Below are positions 13,450-52,864 of a stretch of 64,000 bases of DNA, piece by piece. The notes under the pieces were generated by a model. The model was not told where the DNA came from, did not search any database, and was given only the letters and a program-made list of their open reading frames with translations. This DNA comes from Escherichia coli. GTDB taxonomy: Bacteria > Pseudomonadota > Gammaproteobacteria > Enterobacterales > Enterobacteriaceae. Every line of letters begins with the position of its first letter. Positions within the stretch are counted from its first letter, which is position 1. Location: assembly GCF_051903065.1 (NCBI RefSeq), contig NZ_CP178438.1; one strand, written 5' to 3'. The position numbers and the translations under genes are program-made.

Positions 13450-13596
13450 GATTCGCCTGAACATGCCCTTTTTTCGTAAGTAAGCAACATAAGCTGTCAC
13501 GTTTTGTGATGGCTATTAGAAATTCCTATGCAACAACTGAAAAAAAATTACAAAAAGTGCTTTCTGAACTGAACAAAAAAGAGTAAAGTTAGTCGC

Positions 13597-13705
13597 GTAG
13601 GGTACAGAGGTAAGATGTTCTATCTTTCAGACCTTTTACTTCACGTAATCGGATTTGGCTGAATATTTTAGCCGCCCCAGTCAGTAATGACTGGGGCGTT
13701 TTTTA
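13597..13705 (+). ncRNA. spf: Spot 42 small RNA
   Basis: Sequence gtagggtacagaggtaagatgttctatctttcagacc...gccccagtcagtaatgactggggcgtttttta matches Spot 42; canonical position between polA and engB. Confidence 0.9.
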
Positions 13706-14733: not shown

Positions 14734-14978
14734 ATAGAGCGAGGACGCTAACAGGAACAATGACTCAGGATGAGGGTCAGGAGCGCCAGGAGGCGAAGAC
14801 AGAGGATTGTCAGGAAGACAAACGTCCGGAGACGTAATTAAACGGAAATGGAATCAACACGGATTGTTCCGGCTAATGGAAAAACAGGGTGTGTTGGCGG
14901 CCTGCAAGGATTGTAAGACCCGTTAAGGGTTATGAGTCAGGAAAAAAGGCGACAGAGTAATCTGTCGCCTTTTTTCTT
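14734..14978 (+). ncRNA. csrC: CsrC small RNA (CsrA-sequestering)
   Basis: About 245 nt with many GGA motifs (caggatgagg, caggagcg, caggaagac, ccggagacg, tcaggaaa...) ending in the terminator ggcgacagagtaatctgtcgccttttttc; canonical position between engB and yihI. Confidence 0.85.
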
Positions 14979-15044
14979 TGCTTGCTTTCTGTTAGATTCC
15001 GCCGCAAATCTATACTGAATAAAACGGCTAAAAGACGAACCATT

Positions 15045-36291: not shown

Positions 36292-39200
36292 TTACACCTT
36301 TTCCACATTCACAAGGAAGGACTTAAACTCCGGCGTCTGCGTGTTTGCATCACCAACGAATGGCGTTAACGTATTGGCAATAAAGCCTTTTTTAGCTACG
36401 CCTTCATAGCCCCAGTGAATCGGAATACCGATGGTATCGATATCTTTGCCGTTCGCTTTCAGCGTGCGAATACGTTTGGTCACCACCGCTTTGGCTTTGA
36501 TATAGCCACGGTTGGAGGAGACTTTCACGGTATCGCCCTGGGCAATGCCAAGTTTATTCGCCAGCGACTCCCCGATTTCCACAAACTGCTCTGGTTGCAA
36601 AATCGCGTTCAACAGCGCGTGTTTGGTCCAGTAGTGGAAGTGCTCGGTCAGACGATAGGTGGTTCCGACATACGGGAACTTATCGGCTTTACCCAATGCT
36701 TCGGCGTCGTCTTTAAAGATTCGCGCAGCCGGGTTCGAGATAACGTTTGGATGCAGCGGGTTAGTTCCCAGCGGCGTTTCAAACGGCTCGTAGTGTTCCG
36801 GGAACGGACCTTCCGCCATCTTATCGAGGGCAAACAGACGCCCCATGCCTTCCTGCTGCATGATAAACGGCCCGACGCCGCTACCCGGAGGCGCTGCGCT
36901 GTAGTCCGGAATATCCCAGCCGGTCCACTTAGTGCCGTCCCATTTCAGCAACTGACGCTTCGGATCCCACGGGTTACCCTGCGGATCTGCGGAGGCGCGG
37001 TTATACAGAATGCGGCGGTTAAGCGGCCATGCCCATGCCCAGCCCAGCGTGTTACCGAGGCCAGACGGATCGGCGTTATCACGGCGTGCCATCTGGTTGC
37101 CTTCCGGCGTCCAGCTACCGGCGAAAATCCAGCAGCCACAGGAGGTTGTACCGTCATCGCGCAATTGGGCGAACGAGCTAAGTTGTTGGCCTTTCTTGAC
37201 GATAACCGCACCGGTTGCCGGATCGGTAATATCGGCCAGCGCCTTACCGTTGCTCTCCATCGCTACTTCTTCCGACTTCGGCTCATGCGGAATGGCGTAG
37301 TTCCAGGTCATGTTCAGCACTTGGTCCGGGTTCGCGCCACCCTGTTCGGCATACATCTTGCGCAAGCGCAGGAAGATACCGGAGAGGATCTCGCCGTCAG
37401 TCAGCGCAATCCCCGGGGCGTCCGCACCTTTCCAGTGCCACTGTAACCAGCGACCTGAGTTAACGATAGAACCGTTCTCTTCCGCGAAGCAGGTCGATGG
37501 CAGACGGAACACTTCGGTCTGGATCTTCGACGAGTCAACTTCGTTCAGCTCACCGTGGTTCTGCCAGAAGTTAGAGGTTTCAGTGTTCAGCGGGTCGATG
37601 GTGACGAGGAACTTCAGTTTCGACAGACAACCGATCACTTTGTTTTTGTTCGGGAATGAGGCAACAGGGTTAAAGCCCTGGCAGATATAGCCATTGACCT
37701 TGCCCTCTTTCATCATCTCGAAGTATTGCAGGACGTCGTAGCCTTTATCCCACTTCGGCAACCAGTCAAAGCCCCAGCTATTTTCCGCCGTCGCTTTATC
37801 ACCAAAGAAGGCCTTCATCATGGAGACGAAGAATTTCGGGTAGTTGCCCCAGTAGTTTACCTGGCCTTCCAGCAGCGGTTTTGGCGTGTTGGCGGTAAGG
37901 TAGGTTTGCAGATCGGTCTGCTTCTCGCTTGGCAGCGTCATGTAACCTGGCAGGCTCTGCGACAGCAGCCCCAGGTCCGTCAGCCCCTGAATATTGGAGT
38001 GACCGCGCAGGGCGTTAACGCCGCCGCCAGCCATCCCCATGTTACCGAGCAGCAGCTGGATCATCGCCATCGTACGAATGTTTTGCGCACCAACGGAGTG
38101 TTGCGTCCAGCCGAGGGCATACAGGAACGAGGCAGTTTTATCGTGAGCACTGGTTTCTGCGATGTATTCGCAGACTTTCAGGAACGCGTCTTTTGGCGTA
38201 CCACAGATGTTTTCAACCACATCTGGCGTGTAGCGGGAAACGTGCTGTTTCAGCAAGTTCCACACGCAGCGCGGATGTTGCAGCGTGGTATCGCGTTTGG
38301 CGAAGCCGTTTTCGTCCAGTTCGTAAGTCCAGGAGGATTTATCGTACTTGCGTTTTTCCGCGTCGTAGCCGGTGAACAGGCCATCTTCAAAGCCGTAATC
38401 CTCACGCACGATCAGGCTGGCGTTGGTATAGGCTTCGGTGTATTCGCGGTTGAATTTTTCATTGTTCAGCAGGTACAGCAATACGCCTGACAGGAAAGCA
38501 ATGTCAGTACCGGAACGAATAGGGGCATAGTAGTCAGCCACCGCAGCCGTACGCGTAAAGCGAGGATCGATCACAATCAGCTTCGCGCCATTGTGAATTT
38601 TGGCTTCCATCGCCCAGCGGAACCCGACCGGGTGAGCTTCAGCGGCGTTACCGCCCATCACCACGACGAGGTTGGCGTTCTTGATGTCGACCCAGTGGTT
38701 GGTCATCGCACCGCGACCAAATGTTGGAGCAAGACTTGCTACCGTTGGTCCGTGTCAGACACGCGCCTGGTTGTCGACCGCGAGCATACCCAGCGCGCGG
38801 GAGAATTTTTGCGTTAAATAGCCGGTTTCGTTACTCGACGCGGAAGCACACAGCATCCCGGTGGAGAGCCAGCGGTTAACAGTCACGCCTTCGGCGTTTT
38901 GCGCAATGTAGTTAGCATCGCGGTCTTCTTTCATCAGTTTGGCGATGCGATCAAACGCCTCTTCCCAACTGATTTGCTGCCATTTATCAGAACCTGGCGC
39001 ACGGTATTCCGGAAACTTCAGACGGCTTTCGGAGTGGATGAAATCCACCAGGCCAGCGCCTTTCGGACAAAGTGCACCGCGGTTGACCGGGTGATCCGGA
39101 TCGCCTTCGATATGGAAGATAGATGCTTTGGCGTTTTTTGCTCCGTCACCGAGGCTGTACATCAACAGCCCACAGCCTACGGAACAATAGGTGCAGGTAT

Positions 39201-44451: not shown

Positions 44452-45892
44452 GCTCCTGTTGCGCGGCTTTCGCTTTGCGGCGTAACCACAATCCTTTCAG
44501 GACGATAATGAATGAAATGTTCAGCGCGAGGCCAATCGCCAGCACCAGATAAAACGAACCCACCGGCGACATCAGGCCGATCAGCGGGTCAAAGATACCC
44601 AAACCAGGTGCCAGACGTTTGATTCCGAAAGCGATCACCAGCACGCCGGTAATGCCGCCCGCCAGCGTATTGGCGGTAATCATCGGCAACGGAGCTGCCA
44701 GAGCGTAAGGAATAGCCGGTTCGGTTGCGACTGTGGCACCGACCACAATGGCACTACTGGCAGCCTCTTTTTCCTGTCGGGTAAACAGTTTGGGCGCAAT
44801 GAACGTCGCAAGACCCGCCGCGACGGGTGGCATCAGCGCGACAACGCCGACGATGGCGTACCAGTCATAAATGTGTTTTTCCAGCAGTGAGAAGCAGAAG
44901 AACCAGGCGGTTTTATTGATGGGGCCGCCCATATCGAACGCCAGCATCGCACCGACCAGAAACGCTGCCGCAAACTTCATTGATGGAGGAATGGTATTCA
45001 GGAAGTGGAGCAGCCCGCCCATGAGGTCGGACATCACCGGCCCGATAACGTAGTAAGTGAGCACGCCAAAAACCAGCAGAGTAACGAATGGGATAAGCAT
45101 GGAGCCGAGCAGCGGTTGTAATGCTTTGCCAAGACGGACTTTACGGAACCAGAAGACGAAATAGCCAATCGCCAGCCCCAGCACCACCGCGCCGAGGAAT
45201 CCCGCACCCGACTGGGTGCCGAGCAGCGCTTTGTCGTTCGCCAGATAACAAACCAGAAACGCCGGAGCGAAAGCGGGTTTATCGGCAATCGACGAGGCAA
45301 TATAAGCGCCCATGATGGGGATCATAAAGGTGAAGCCGAGATAACCGATGGATTCAACCACCCAGGTAAACGACGGCGCGCCTTTCGACATATCGGTATA
45401 TGGCAAACCGAACTGCACCAGCATGTTGGCAAGCGCCACCAGGATACCGCCACCGATGACAAACGGCAGCGCCGCAGAGACGCCCGCCATCAGGTGGCTC
45501 ATCACGCTGCCGCTTTGTACTTCCTGTTTGCCGAGCTTCACGCCGCTATCCGCGGCAAAAAGCTGCGAGTTTGTTGGTAATTCGCTGAAAATCTGATCGA
45601 TATTTTTCAGCGCCTGGGAGATGGCAATCTCATAAACTTTTTTCCCGGCAAACCGTGCGCGATCGTCACCGCTCAGGCCACGCCCGGTGGCGAGAATCAC
45701 GTAATCGGCAGCGGCAATCTCTTCGCTGGATAAGCGGTTTTCAACGCCGCTGGACCCTTGAGTTTCCACTTTTATGGTATGGCCGAGAGAACGGGCTTTC
45801 TGTTCCAGGGCTTCCGCCACCATGTAGGTGTGAGCGATCCCGGCGGGGCAGTTGGTGATCGCGACAATACGTAAGGATGACTCCATCGCCAC
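44435..45892 (-). CDS. frvB: Fructose-like PTS enzyme IIBC component
   Basis: 485-aa ORF with an N-terminal IIB cysteine motif (VAITNCPAGIAHT) and a polytopic IIC domain. Confidence 0.88.
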   Translation of the reverse strand: MAMESSLRIVAITNCPAGIAHTYMVAEALEQKARSLGHTIKVETQGSSGVENRLSSEEIAAADYVILATGRGLSGDDRARFAGKKVYEIAISQALKNIDQIFSELPTNSQLFAADSGVKLGKQEVQSGSVMSHLMAGVSAALPFVIGGGILVALANMLVQFGLPYTDMSKGAPSFTWVVESIGYLGFTFMIPIMGAYIASSIADKPAFAPAFLVCYLANDKALLGTQSGAGFLGAVVLGLAIGYFVFWFRKVRLGKALQPLLGSMLIPFVTLLVFGVLTYYVIGPVMSDLMGGLLHFLNTIPPSMKFAAAFLVGAMLAFDMGGPINKTAWFFCFSLLEKHIYDWYAIVGVVALMPPVAAGLATFIAPKLFTRQEKEAASSAIVVGATVATEPAIPYALAAPLPMITANTLAGGITGVLVIAFGIKRLAPGLGIFDPLIGLMSPVGSFYLVLAIGLALNISFIIVLKGLWLRRKAKAAQQELVHEH

Positions 45893-45896
45893 TTCC

Positions 45897-46343
45897 TTAT
45901 GAGCTGAGGGTTTGATTTAACAAGGCAAGCACCTGGTCGGCGTCGCCCTGTTGCAGTTGGTGAATAAAATCCTGGTGAATAATTTTGCGACACAGTGTGC
46001 CGATGATTTTGACCTGATCCTCTTCGCCACTTTGCGGCACGCCGAGGCAGATCCAGCAATTGACGTCTTCGCCGTCGCTGGCTTTCCAGTCAATAGCCTG
46101 CGCTTTGCGGGCGAATAACACGAACGGTTGTTTAACGCAGGCGCTTTTACCGTGCGGCACGGCGACACCAGAACCAAAACCGGTGGAGTGCATTTTTTCG
46201 CGCAGCAGCAGGGTTTGCAGGAACTGGTGTGAGTCGGTGATAAAGCCGTTTTGTAACGCCATTGTCGCTAACTGTTTCAGAATGGAATAAGTGCCATTGC
46301 CCTGAATATTCAGGTCAATACAGCTTGCAGTAAGAGCTGCCAT
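45897..46343 (-). CDS. frvA: Fructose-like PTS enzyme IIA component
   Basis: 148-aa ORF with the IIA(Fru/Mtl)-type histidine region (GVAVPHGKS). Confidence 0.88.
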   Translation of the reverse strand: MAALTASCIDLNIQGNGTYSILKQLATMALQNGFITDSHQFLQTLLLREKMHSTGFGSGVAVPHGKSACVKQPFVLFARKAQAIDWKASDGEDVNCWICLGVPQSGEEDQVKIIGTLCRKIIHQDFIHQLQQGDADQVLALLNQTLSS

Positions 46344-46820
46344 TAATCGGACTCCATGAAAAAATATTTACGTTAATTGTAATAGCGGGGCGGGTTTGTG
46401 ATGAGCGCGGATATGTCGTGAAGTCGTGACAATATAAAGCAGAGTGAAGGATAAATTTTGCGGCGTAAGGCACATATTAGTAGGTAAAATAAATGCCGTG
46501 AATAAAAAATCATTATTTAATGATTTTGTGAATGTTTAACTGTCGCGGATATTTTGCTGCCACGTTATTTATATTTGTGGCTTATGAGTCAGTTTGAATC
46601 ATATCTAATATTTTTTACGATATTTAGTTAAAAACGGCACTATTGTTATATTCCTCACGTTCCAGGAAATCAGCGGATTTACTCATATTATGCGGCGGGA
46701 TATTATCCATCGGCCTGCTGAAGTTGGATTAAAAATTCGAAAGTGCACGCTTTATATTTCTCTATATACGTATTCCTTTTGGAAAGCGTAGGGCCTCCTT
46801 TATTTCAGGGAACGTAAATA

Positions 46821-48215
46821 ATGAAAAAATCGACATTATCTTTAGCCATCGGTTTATTATTGGCATGTAGTACCGGTATGGCAAAAACACAGCATTTAAC
46901 GCTGGAACAACGCATGGCATTGCTGGAAGAACGCCTGGAAGCGGCAGAAATGCGGGCGGCAAAAGCAGAGAGCCAGGTTAAACAGCTGCAGACACAACAA
47001 GCCGCTGAGATCCGCGAAATTAAGGCTGCCCAGGGCAATACGCCGGTAAATGGACAGACAACAGCGGAATCTGCAAAGAAAAATGCCACCTCACCTAATC
47101 TTTTGCTTTCAGGTTATGGCGATTTAAAAATCTACGGCGACGTAGAATTTAATATGGATGCGGAAAGTAATCATGGCCTGCTGGCAATGACCAACGCTGA
47201 TGTGAATAGCGATTCCACCAATGAACAGTGGAATCTCAATGGTCGTATTCTGTTAGGTTTTGATGGTATGCGAAAACTGGATAATGGCTATTTCGCCGGG
47301 TTCTCCGCACAACCGCTGGGGGATATGCACGGTTCAGTAAATATCGATGATGCGGTATTCTTCTTTGGCAAAGAAAACGACTGGAAGGTCAAAGTAGGCC
47401 GTTTTGAAGCCTACGATATGTTCCCGCTGAATCAGGATACCTTTGTTGAACATTCCGGTAATACTGCGAACGATCTTTATGACGATGGCAGCGGTTATAT
47501 CTATATGATGAAAGAGGGCCGCGGGCGCTCTAACGCTGGCGGTAATTTCCTCGTCAGCAAACAACTCGATAACTGGTATTTTGAATTAAACACGTTACTT
47601 GAAGACGGAACATCTTTATATAATGACGGTAATTATCATGGACGCGATATGGAGCAGCAGAAAAATGTTGCTTATCTGCGCCCAGTAATTGCCTGGTCGC
47701 CGACGGAAGAATTCACCGTTTCCGCAGCGATGGAAGCGAACGTGGTAAATAATGCTTATGGTTATACCGATAGCAAGGGTAATTTTGTCGATCAGTCCGA
47801 TCGTACCGGCTATGGTATGAGCATGACCTGGAATGGCTTGAAAACGGATCCGGACAATGGCATTGTGGTTAATCTTAATACCGCCTATTTAGATGCTAAT
47901 AATGAGAAAGATTTCACTGCCGGGATTAACGCGCTGTGGAAACGTTTCGAGCTCGGTTATATCTACGCGCACAATAAGATTGATGAATTCAGCGGTGTAG
48001 TTTGTGATAACGACTGCTGGATTGATGATGAAGGGACGTACACCATTCACACCATTCATGCGTCTTATCAGTTCGCTAATGTGATGGATATGGAGAACTT
48101 TAATATTTACCTCGGGACGTATTACTCCATTCTGGATAGCGACGGCGATAAAAAACACGGTGATGATACTGATGACCGTTACGGCGCACGCGTTCGCTTT
48201 AAATACTTCTTCTGA
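46821..48215 (+). CDS. Putative outer-membrane beta-barrel porin with an N-terminal coiled coil (carbohydrate-porin-like)
   Basis: Signal peptide MKKSTLSLAIGLLLACSTGMA, then a heptad-like stretch (LTLEQRMALLEERLEAAEMRAAKAESQVKQLQTQQAAEIREIK), then alternating aromatic/polar beta-strand patterns ending in the OMP-type C-terminus RFKYFF; AT-rich upstream region. Confidence 0.6.
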   Translation: MKKSTLSLAIGLLLACSTGMAKTQHLTLEQRMALLEERLEAAEMRAAKAESQVKQLQTQQAAEIREIKAAQGNTPVNGQTTAESAKKNATSPNLLLSGYGDLKIYGDVEFNMDAESNHGLLAMTNADVNSDSTNEQWNLNGRILLGFDGMRKLDNGYFAGFSAQPLGDMHGSVNIDDAVFFFGKENDWKVKVGRFEAYDMFPLNQDTFVEHSGNTANDLYDDGSGYIYMMKEGRGRSNAGGNFLVSKQLDNWYFELNTLLEDGTSLYNDGNYHGRDMEQQKNVAYLRPVIAWSPTEEFTVSAAMEANVVNNAYGYTDSKGNFVDQSDRTGYGMSMTWNGLKTDPDNGIVVNLNTAYLDANNEKDFTAGINALWKRFELGYIYAHNKIDEFSGVVCDNDCWIDDEGTYTIHTIHASYQFANVMDMENFNIYLGTYYSILDSDGDKKHGDDTDDRYGARVRFKYFF

Positions 48216-48255
48216 TGAAGGCGCGGTGCTGGATATTTTCCGGCACCGCAACTCA

Positions 48256-48570
48256 TTAAGGCAGGTAAAACACTTCTTGCAGCTCGCTACTCACCGGGCT
48301 GTTATCCGGGTTAGCGGGCATAACGTCGGTCATATATTTCCACCAACGTTGGCAGATTTCAGTGCTGGCTACCGCATTCCACCGTTCTTCAGATTCAATC
48401 TCTACCATGGCAAACAGCAGATTACGCGCTTTGTCGAGGTAAATGGCGTAGTTATGCGCACCGTGAGATTTCAACACTGCTTCCAGTTCCGGCCAGATGG
48501 GGTTATGCCGACGCTGATACTCTTCGTGGGCGTCGGGGTTAACCTGCATGACAAAGGCTTTGCGGATCAT
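48256..48570 (-). CDS. rhaM: L-rhamnose mutarotase
   Basis: 104-aa [37 protein letters not shown]... Confidence 0.92.
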
Positions 48571-48579
48571 GTATGCTCC

Positions 48580-49404
48580 TTACAGCGCCAGCGCACTGGC
48601 TAGTGGTGTAACGCCGAAGCGCTTGCCGAGCGCTATCAACTCTTCACGGCTGATGGTCTGTTTCATGCCGCCCATCGAATACACCTTCACTAACACTTCC
48701 GCTGATTTTTCTGCGGTGTCGATTAAACCGAATGTTTCATCCAGCGTCGGTCCGGAACCGAACACACCGTGGAAGGGCCACAACACCAGCGAATGTTTTT
48801 GCATCTCGTGGGCAGTTGCCTGGCCGATTTCGTCCGTGCCGGGCACCATCCACGGCAGAATGCCAACGCCATCCGGGAATACCACCAGACACTCGGTGCT
48901 GCCTTCCCACAGTTGGCGAGTGAAGACCGCGGTGTCGTTTTCCAGTACATAGGTGAGGGCGATCAGGTTGGTGGCATGGCAGTGCATGATCACCCGATCT
49001 TTACCGTTGGTGGCTTTAATACGCTCGCAGTGGGAGAGAAAGTGAGCCGGAAGTTCAGACGTTGGAACGGCTTCGTTGGTTAACCCCCAGAGAATGTGGT
49101 AACCCGCGCCGTCGCTGTCGACTTTTACGACGCCTAAGTTAGCTGCAGGATCAAGCTGGACGTTACGGAAGAATTTGCCGGAGCCGGTGACAATAAACGG
49201 CGTATTTGCCAGTAAAGGCATGGGCTGGCTGAGCGGAATATAGCGCGGTTGTGGGTGGAAGTTGTCGTGATACGGTGCGATATCGGCGTCATCCAGGCGC
49301 AGCGTCAGGTTGCCGCCGTTGCGCTCATCCCAGCCTTTCAGCCAGGCGTCGGTGGTGGCTTTGATCATTCCCTGGACAAACCAGGACTGGGTAATGTTTT
49401 GCAT
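48580..49404 (-). CDS. rhaD: Rhamnulose-1-phosphate aldolase
   Basis: Start at [25 protein letters not shown] (274 aa); the ORF-track extension upstream runs into the REP array and is not coding. Confidence 0.92.
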
Positions 49405-49431
49405 GTTCTGTGTTCCTGTAAATTCGGTGTT

Positions 49432-49847
49432 GTCGGATGCACGACCCGTAGGCCGGATAAGGCGCTCGTGCCGCATCCGGCAATCAATGCCTGATGCGAC
49501 GCTGTCGCGTCTTATCAGGCCTACAACTATTGCCGACCTGTAGGCCGGATAAGGCACTTGTGCCGCATCCGGCAATCAATGCCTGATGCGACGCTGTCGC
49601 GTCTTATCAGACCTACAACTATTGCCGACCTGTAGGCCGGATAAGGCGCTCGTGCCGCATCCGGCAATCAATGCCTGATGCGACGCTGTCGCGTCTTATC
49701 AGGCCTACAACTATTGCCGACCTGTAGGCCGGATAAGGCACTTGTGCCGCATCCGGCAATCAATGCCTGATGCGATGTCGCGTCTTATCAGGCCTACAAC
49801 TGTTGCCGACCTGTAGGCCGGATAAGGCACTTGTGCCGCATCCGGCA
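49432..49847. repeat. BIME: tandem array of about 4.5 REP-pair units (~91 bp each) between rhaD and rhaA
   Basis: The unit gcctgatgcgacgctgtcgcgtcttatcaggcctacaactattgccgacctgtaggccggataaggc[gctcg or acttg]tgccgcatccggcaatcaat repeats with minor variants. Confidence 0.88.
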
Positions 49848-49851
49848 GTGT

Positions 49852-52864
<3,013 letters not shown>

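Follow-up and report, generated by a model that had tools for sequence, protein, structure and literature searches.

The frvA-rhaM interval

Between frvA and rhaM, in a stretch of 64,000 nucleotides from Escherichia coli (contig NZ_CP178438.1 of assembly GCF_051903065.1; the whole stretch is called the window below), lies a gene for an outer-membrane porin. The interval bounded by the two flanking genes is exactly 46344-48255, and the open reading frame (ORF) list gives a single long ORF within it, at 46821-48215 on the plus strand. We are highly confident that this chromosomal gene belongs, as a stand-alone member, to the RafY glycoporin family (PF16966, TCDB 1.B.15), and that it is an ancestral resident of its site rather than an insertion. 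The genes of the locus, and the hairpin that separates the two convergent ones, are the following.

45897-46343, minus strand: frvA, divergent neighbour of the porin gene
46821-48215, plus strand: porin coding sequence, with an ATG start, 464 amino acids, stop codon counted in
48223-48249, no strand assigned: GC-rich hairpin between the convergent porin gene and rhaM, from fold energies on both strands
48256-48570, minus strand: rhaM, convergent neighbour of the porin gene

The spacer 5' of the porin gene comprises 477 bp (46344-46820) with a GC content of 35.8%, compared with 45.0% for the porin coding sequence and 50.3% for the whole window; the GC content at third codon positions (GC3) is 0.47 in the porin gene and 0.60-0.65 in the adjoining genes. 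On the other side, the hairpin at 48223-48249 folds with -27.1 kcal/mol (z = -6.5) on the plus strand and -20.9 kcal/mol (z = -5.3) on the minus strand. Having no T run, it went unreported by the terminator scan; it is probably a terminator shared by the porin gene and rhaM, even though it has no U tract.

Family membership

Membership of the protein in the RafY family is established here. The Pfam profile PF16966 (Porin_8, 'Porin-like glycoporin RafY') matches it at E = 8.7e-154 (512.5 bits), with residues 104-464 aligned to model positions 1-372 of 372, and the same profile is matched by all 44 relatives in our alignment. The only other Pfam match of note is a weak one to PF11471 (Sugarporin_N), at E = 0.06 for the window protein; among the 44 relatives, this domain is found at E <= 0.001 in six and at E <= 0.1 in 17. 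The LamB profile (PF02264) gave no match at E <= 10 for the window protein and none at E <= 0.1 among the 44 relatives, the OprB (PF04966) and Porin_O_P (PF07396) profiles were matched by none of the 44 family members, and NCBIfam held no meaningful match for the window protein. The family itself is small – 234 representatives of 1.84 billion at E <= 0.001, many of them fragments.

The prototype of the family is RafY of the raffinose plasmid pRSD2, to which the window protein is 79% identical, with 86% positives, over 450 amino acids; plasmid copies of rafY are about 86% identical to the window gene in nucleotides. Both proteins are 464 amino acids long and fall end to end into the same Pfam family; common to both, too, are a signal peptide, a helix with heptad pattern near the N-terminus, the conserved motifs of the loops, two paired Cys residues within a late loop and the C-terminal RFKYFF. 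They differ in setting: whereas plasmid rafY follows, in the order seen on an IncFIA plasmid, genes for a LacI-type regulator, an alpha-galactosidase, an MFS permease and a GH32 hydrolase – the rafR-rafA-rafB-rafD operon – the window gene lies by itself on the chromosome, with no rafR, rafA, rafB or rafD beside it, and has a different upstream region.

The gene is already known: it is catalogued as an accessory gene of E. coli, and the porin family to which it belongs has been characterised. Its exact protein sequence is present on 155 public contigs under the name 'carbohydrate porin', the name that PGAP also gives it in complete E. coli genomes, among them strain 23CRST027, which is 100% identical (WP_047624912.1), and the homologue in O157:H7, an organism without rafRABD genes, has been annotated rafY2 (PMC4809568). 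Literature on BL21/REL606 comparisons yielded nothing relevant on the porin gene. What is added here is the history of the gene as an orphaned remnant with ancestral synteny, its occurrence in recombining haplotypes, the assignment of its barrel to a 16-stranded class and a candidate promoter architecture with a covarying stem-loop.

Domain architecture and predicted fold

The protein can be divided into four parts.

46821-46883, plus strand: signal peptide, residues 1-21, cleavage after GMA, read from the sequence
46902-47033, plus strand: periplasmic coiled-coil helix, residues 28-71, from AlphaFold2 and the heptad pattern
47034-47117, plus strand: low-confidence linker, residues 72-99, with a predicted local distance difference test (pLDDT) score below 50 at residues 72-97
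47118-48212, plus strand: predicted 16-stranded beta-barrel, residues 100-464, from AlphaFold2

The protein starts with MKKSTLSLAIGLLLACSTGMA, a Sec signal peptide cut before KTQH, and the cleavage site – A-x-A before the cut and K(T/N) after it – is kept in the orthologues. The signal peptide also contains a lipobox-like LLAC (residues 13-16, 46857-46868), which raised the question of a lipoprotein; this was rejected, as the Cys (Cys16) is not conserved whereas the signal peptidase I site is, and the resemblance is probably fortuitous. In the AlphaFold2 model, residues 28-71 form a helix of about 44 residues with a pLDDT of about 87, and the sequence places hydrophobic heptad positions at residues 28, 32, 35, 39, 42, 46, 49, 53, 56 and 67. 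The C-terminus of the protein is aromatic, RVRFKYFF.

With an alignment of 44 sequences (24-85% identity) as input, AlphaFold2 returned a model of mean pLDDT 81.7, in which 16 long strands occupy residues 100-463. The long loop after strand 5 (residues 195-240) is conserved and holds most of the invariant residues. The TCDB prediction for family 1.B.15, as given in an excerpt from PMC4827864, likewise has 16 strands. The best structural matches of the model are OprP and OmpF-class porins: OprP (2o4v), the OmpF/OmpU/Omp32 class, VhChiP and DcaP are all 16-stranded trimeric porins that resemble the model in fold, but at 8-13% identity and without a Pfam match, so that the resemblance does not amount to family membership.

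Given the coiled coil, the channel might instead have been expected to belong to the LamB/ScrY maltoporin class or to the OprB class, with a greasy slide and a saturable sugar-binding site. Such an assignment would suit the ScrY-like N-terminal coiled coil and the Sugarporin_N match (weak here, significant in six of the 44 relatives), the PGAP name 'carbohydrate porin', and a TCDB-based clustering that, in the excerpt from PMC4827864, puts the RafY family nearest the sugar porin family. ScrY and LamB (PF02264) are outer-membrane sugar channels too, and the periplasmic coiled coil of ScrY is of the PF11471 type; their barrels, however, have 18 strands, and the window barrel is predicted to have 16. 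Because none of the 44 family members matches LamB, OprB or Porin_O_P and the model has 16 strands, we consider the maltoporin class very unlikely and take the barrel to belong, on the predicted structure, to a separate 16-stranded family furnished with a ScrY-like periplasmic coiled coil.

A preliminary description of this DNA, made from the sequence without database searches, had recognised a 464-residue ORF with a signal peptide, a coiled coil and a barrel-like C-terminus ending in RFKYFF, convergent with rhaM, and all of these lie where it placed them. Its suggestion that this is a porin with a RafY-type N-terminal coiled coil is borne out by the PF16966 match and the similarity to plasmid RafY, and the profile search does assign a porin family, as the structural model does a barrel of 16 strands. 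From its wider grouping of the protein with ScrY, RafY and OprB, the RafY part stands and the other two fall away, there being no LamB or OprB profile match.

An ancestral position beside rhaM

The closest relatives outside E. coli are found in Citrobacter and Kluyvera, at 82-85% identity. In all the loci of these two genera that were examined, the porin gene adjoins rhaM, lying downstream of it and convergent with it, and its upstream neighbours are a cupin-HTH (helix-turn-helix) regulator and azlCD, not frv. A scan of one genome per species gave 80 loci (numbered with the prefix L below), which were then searched with marker proteins. Most loci at >= 67% identity have rhaM close downstream, and a rhaM-adjoining porin gene occurs in Kluyvera, Citrobacter, Klebsiella, Raoultella, Pseudocitrobacter, Superficieibacter, Trabulsiella and Enterobacter. 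In all, the porin gene is convergent with rhaM in at least 10 enterobacterial genera besides E. coli, with orthologues 67-85% identical; Trabulsiella and two Enterobacter species share with E. coli the presence of frvA just upstream of it.

Other members of this set have sugar genes in the upstream position. Immediately upstream of the porin gene, and in its orientation, L023, L024, L029 and L030 (from an Enterobacter, Klebsiella spallanzanii, K. grimontii and Raoultella terrigena) have rafR-rafA-rafB, which are 65-78% identical to the plasmid genes; counting L026 and L036 as well, linkage to raf genes is present in six orthologous loci. Between rafB and the porin gene, L024 and L029 have an ORF of 196-197 amino acids that ends about 108 bp upstream of the porin gene and whose start we take to resemble those of acetyltransferases. 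A different sugar cassette precedes the porin gene in L028 (K. michiganensis), at the same short distance.

Because orthologues adjoin rhaM convergently across genera, the comparison of loci indicates that this position is ancestral and that the K-12 state, described below, is a loss or replacement, not the ground state for an insertion within E. coli. Most likely, to judge from gene order, the porin is the last survivor of an ancestral chromosomal sugar cassette beside rhaM that has been orphaned in E. coli, Citrobacter and Kluyvera.

The ratio of non-synonymous to synonymous substitution rates (dN/dS) is 0.087 in comparison with BL21, 0.048 with Nissle and 0.02-0.06 with Citrobacter and Kluyvera, values (0.02-0.09) that argue for a maintained function; the ORF is intact in all nine of the sequences compared. 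Divergence from plasmid rafY at synonymous sites is high (dS = 0.93).

The preliminary description had called the gene 'inserted', and a recent horizontal acquisition by some E. coli lineages into the frvA-rhaM interval, with a raffinose plasmid as one possible source, would indeed accord with its absence from K-12 and about half of E. coli genomes, with its AT-richness relative to its neighbours and with the plasmid mobility of a paralogue about 86% identical in nucleotides. Yet the Citrobacter and Kluyvera orthologues, at the same rhaM-convergent site, are nearer to the window protein (82-85%) than plasmid RafY is (79%), more distant orthologues hold the same site in at least eight further genera, the value of dS against plasmid rafY is that given above, and no integrase, insertion sequence (IS) element, tRNA gene or direct repeat flanks the porin gene. 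The idea is largely refuted by synteny, and we regard an insertion as extremely improbable.

The constancy of the rhaM side could also be taken to mean that the porin serves rhamnose metabolism, for example by admitting rhamnose-containing oligosaccharides for the rha genes. Adjacency to rhaM is, after all, the one constant of the locus in at least 10 genera, with upstream neighbours that vary between frv, azlCD with an HTH regulator, raf and other cassettes. But the porin gene and rhaM are convergent and have a strong hairpin between them, and so are not co-transcribed; the partner genes, where present, belong to alpha-galactoside use (raf) and lie upstream in the porin's own orientation; and a conserved adjacency can be plain inherited synteny. 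We therefore hold a tie to rhamnose to be highly improbable, and ancestral residence of an orphaned RafY porin remains the preferred account.

Presence and absence within E. coli

Among 5426 complete E. coli genomes, 2541 hold at least 80% of the frvA-porin-rhaM stretch, and in the remainder only frvA and rhaM are present. The porin gene is found in BL21, O157:H7, Nissle 1917 and APEC O1, among others; K-12, O104:H4 and O111:H8 are among the strains without the gene. In K-12 MG1655, frvA (b3900) and rhaM (b3901) are separated by a 300-bp spacer without a porin gene. The interval is accordingly not identical in K-12, and the guess of the preliminary description that the gene varies between strains proved right. 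In comparison with K-12, the interval falls into two segments.

46344-46531, no strand assigned: frvA-proximal part of the spacer, the sole part with a K-12 counterpart, 72% identical to the K-12 spacer
46532-48215, plus strand: segment absent from K-12-type genomes, containing the porin control region and coding sequence, from comparison with K-12 and BL21

The first 188 bp of the K-12 spacer align with 46344-46531, and the other ~112 bp score 33 against the window, where shuffles average 33.9, and so match nothing there significantly. We considered whether these ~112 bp could be the scar of a precise deletion of the porin ORF and rejected this, as their alignment score to the gene ends equals the shuffle mean. 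Most likely, as far as the alignments go, the porin gene and its control region have been replaced in K-12-type E. coli by about 112 bp of unrelated sequence.

How the two states came to coexist is suggested by the identity between BL21 and K-12 over the region (45900-52000): it is about 100% from fdo to frvA, 75% in the spacer and 96-97% across rhaM, rhaD and rhaA, and then recovers. Since identity drops beyond frvA, stays lower as far as rhaA and afterwards recovers, the porin-plus and porin-minus alleles would be haplotypes of long standing that recombination has passed between lineages; one breakpoint would lie in the spacer between frvA and the porin gene. The locus would then offer a clean case of an ancestral gene that persists as a presence/absence polymorphism shuffled by recombination.

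B2 strains keep the porin gene and about 350 bp upstream of it and have no frv operon. The gene does lie between two sugar operons, as the preliminary description had pointed out, but its frv neighbourhood is incidental, because B2 strains hold the porin without frv. In some strains, the porin locus shows an IS1-associated insertion or deletion, or a truncation.

Near the end of the K-12-shared part of the spacer, at 46506-46527, there is also a perfect 10-bp inverted repeat, AAAATCATTA-TT-TAATGATTTT, which is kept in B2 strains as well and may be a regulator site for frv or the porin.

Candidate promoters and the upstream control region

Upstream of the porin gene, three candidate elements were noted.

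46644-46659, plus strand: candidate CRP-like site TGTTATATTCCTCACG (TGTTA-N6-TCACG), matching eight of the 10 positions of TGTGA-N6-TCACA
46678-46706, plus strand: candidate promoter P1, TTTACT, 17-nt spacer, TATTAT, from a consensus scan
46729-46758, plus strand: candidate promoter P2, TTAAAA, 18-nt spacer, TATATT, from a consensus scan

The CRP-like motif is present in 31 of the 35 upstream regions scanned; the four without it, L024, L028, L029 and L030, are the loci in which another gene ends about 108 bp upstream. In most regions with the motif, a TTTAC box follows at a distance of 18 nt; in the window it is the -35 box of P1, and it is conserved across genera, and in most orthologues an AT-rich -10-like box stands 6-8 nt before the stem-loop described in the next section. 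The centre of the CRP-like site would lie 61.5 nt before the expected transcription start site of P1 (-61.5), which fits the geometry of a class-I CRP promoter, and a transcript from P2 would begin 2-3 nt before the stem-loop at 46767-46790. We infer the promoters and CRP control from these patterns: the porin gene is probably transcribed from a promoter of its own, likely one of the class-I CRP-dependent kind.

The preliminary description had spoken of a leader of about 480 bp. The likely 5' untranslated region, calculated from the candidate promoters, is about 55-108 nt, and most of the 477-bp stretch is, in our reading, a shared divergent control region. A long-range pairing of 46642-46670 with the start region (46802-46830), 72% complementary, was also considered and put down to chance, the bases not being kept in Citrobacter and Kluyvera.

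A covarying stem-loop in the porin leader

The presumed leader contains two conserved elements.

46767-46790, plus strand: leader stem-loop UACGUAUUCC-UUUU-GGAAAGCGUA, about 30 nt before the start codon
46807-46811, plus strand: Shine-Dalgarno sequence AGGGA within the conserved block UUCUUUAUUUCA(A/G)GGAA, nearly invariant in orthologues

RNAalifold found the stem-loop in an alignment of 19 orthologues that MAFFT had built with no regard to structure. Its sequence varies between genera and its pairing is kept: over the eight pairs, 88% of cells are paired, compared with 67% in shuffles, and changes on both sides occur in seven of the eight pairs. The covariation score is 0.70 against 0.30; none of 500 shuffles scored as high, and slid controls reached at most 0.31. 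Across 35 loci, the region folds with a mean z of -1.97, where two control windows gave -0.57 and -0.28, and the structure recurs at the same position in L010, L012, L014-L044 and L065. A permissive Rfam scan of 45800-48700 returned no match to it, so the stem-loop does not correspond to a described RNA family. A role as transcription terminator was rejected: there is no adjacent U tract on either strand, and the upstream gene in E. coli is divergent.

In the Shine-Dalgarno block, a mini-hairpin of 5 bp that covers the Shine-Dalgarno sequence is predicted; because the block is invariant, covariation neither supports nor rejects it.

We suggest, tentatively and at rather less than an even chance, that the leaders of RafY-family porins carry a cis-regulatory module not described before, made up of the covarying stem-loop and the invariant block that can cover the Shine-Dalgarno sequence. 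In the orphan copies, a conserved class-I promoter of CRP-like type may precede this module, which could determine how stable the mRNA is, by analogy with the 5'-terminal hairpin of ompA, or serve control by small RNAs or at the level of translation. If such a module exists, it would bear on the control of an alternative large-pore porin, and hence on nutrient competition and on antibiotic entry once the major porins are lost.

The orthologues on the rhaM side (in Citrobacter, Kluyvera, Klebsiella, Raoultella, Trabulsiella and Enterobacter) thus resemble the window locus in position, orientation, CRP-like site, TTTAC box, stem-loop and Shine-Dalgarno block; they differ in their upstream neighbours and, in the four loci named above, in having no CRP-like site.

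Is the orphan gene functional?

Several points weigh against the account of the gene as a functional, stand-alone RafY porin with a promoter of its own. No rafR, rafA, rafB or rafD gene lies near it or anywhere in the window; the gene is dispensable, given that about half of E. coli genomes lack it and some have IS1 hits or deletions there; and poor or silenced expression would be in keeping with its AT-rich upstream region and low GC3. Both the number of strands and the trimer rest on prediction, as there is no NCBIfam model and a PDB sequence search found no solved structure for any family member. Finally, the CRP-like site matches just eight of 10 consensus positions and its spacer is conserved as well, so that another regulator could bind there.

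Some of these features would be expected of a cryptic relic – a gene orphaned, silenced (for instance by H-NS acting on the AT-rich region), in the course of being lost and without function in E. coli. The absence of raf genes from the window, the loss, truncation or IS1 hits seen in many strains, and the upstream GC content of 36% with the low GC3 all agree with this. Against it stand strong purifying selection both within E. coli and between genera (dN/dS 0.02-0.09), the full-length ORF kept in 2541 complete genomes, and the retention of the promoter-like architecture and the covarying stem-loop in orphan copies of many genera. On balance, a relic is unlikely, and we continue to favour a maintained RafY porin.

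Proposed function and related systems

As a working model, the precursor would be exported by the Sec system and cleaved after residue 21, and the mature protein would be inserted into the outer membrane by the beta-barrel assembly machinery (BAM), which would recognise its C-terminal aromatic signal. There it would form a 16-stranded barrel with the conserved loop folded inwards, most likely as a trimer like its structural neighbours, while the N-terminal helix of about 44 residues would build a coiled coil in the periplasm. By analogy with plasmid RafY, the product would be a wide, passive channel through which di- to oligosaccharides (raffinose, stachyose, sucrose, maltodextrins) could cross the outer membrane at low concentration. 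The channel properties and the trimer, like the role of the leader stem-loop, are what we infer from these likenesses.

In 1997, Ulmke et al. reportedly found that RafY can complement mutants in lamB and scrY and lets raffinose, stachyose and maltodextrins through. The channel function of RafY is the subject of Ulmke 1997 and Andersen 1998, going by their titles as quoted in PMC4827864.

A more recent parallel is GlyP of Klebsiella pneumoniae, assigned to the RafY family and described as an alternative large-pore channel (bioRxiv 10.64898/2026.03.29.715108). In contrast to the stand-alone window gene, glyP belongs to a regulator-permease-hydrolase-porin operon controlled by the LacI-type GlyR. 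It probably belongs among the more distant paralogues, those about 60% identical, as the genes at L073-L091 do. According to the same study, up-regulation of the RafY-family porin alone sufficed for a fitness gain in a K. pneumoniae strain defective in the major porins, and the de-repressed porin can compensate for their loss and alter competitive fitness in a gut community (bioRxiv 10.64898/2026.03.29.715108). In E. coli, oligosaccharides, and possibly large antibiotics as well, may cross the outer membrane of laboratory strains and of natural strains unequally well, because BL21, O157:H7, Nissle 1917 and B2 pathogens carry the porin and K-12 does not.

Klebsiella genomes hold two to four RafY-family paralogues at separate loci (L024, L046, L051 and L077 in K. 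spallanzanii; L028 and L074 in K. michiganensis). One class among them, at about 60% identity, follows a RafB-like permease gene and a GH32 hydrolase gene, and may be GlyP.

Other features of the window

Elsewhere in the window, expected features were found at 1-2290 (the 3' part of 23S ribosomal RNA, and 5S ribosomal RNA), 13587-13705 (Spot 42), 14734-14987 (CsrC) and 38702-38760 (a selenocysteine insertion sequence, or SECIS, element), the last within the gene for the formate dehydrogenase alpha subunit (fdoG in K-12). The spacer between rhaD and rhaA (49451-49794) is filled by four tandem repeats of the repetitive extragenic palindrome/bacterial interspersed mosaic element (REP/BIME) type, which appear as Rfam naRNA4 matches. 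This spacer measures about 450 bp in K-12 and about 174 bp in BL21, and the length of the repeat array is therefore strain-variable.

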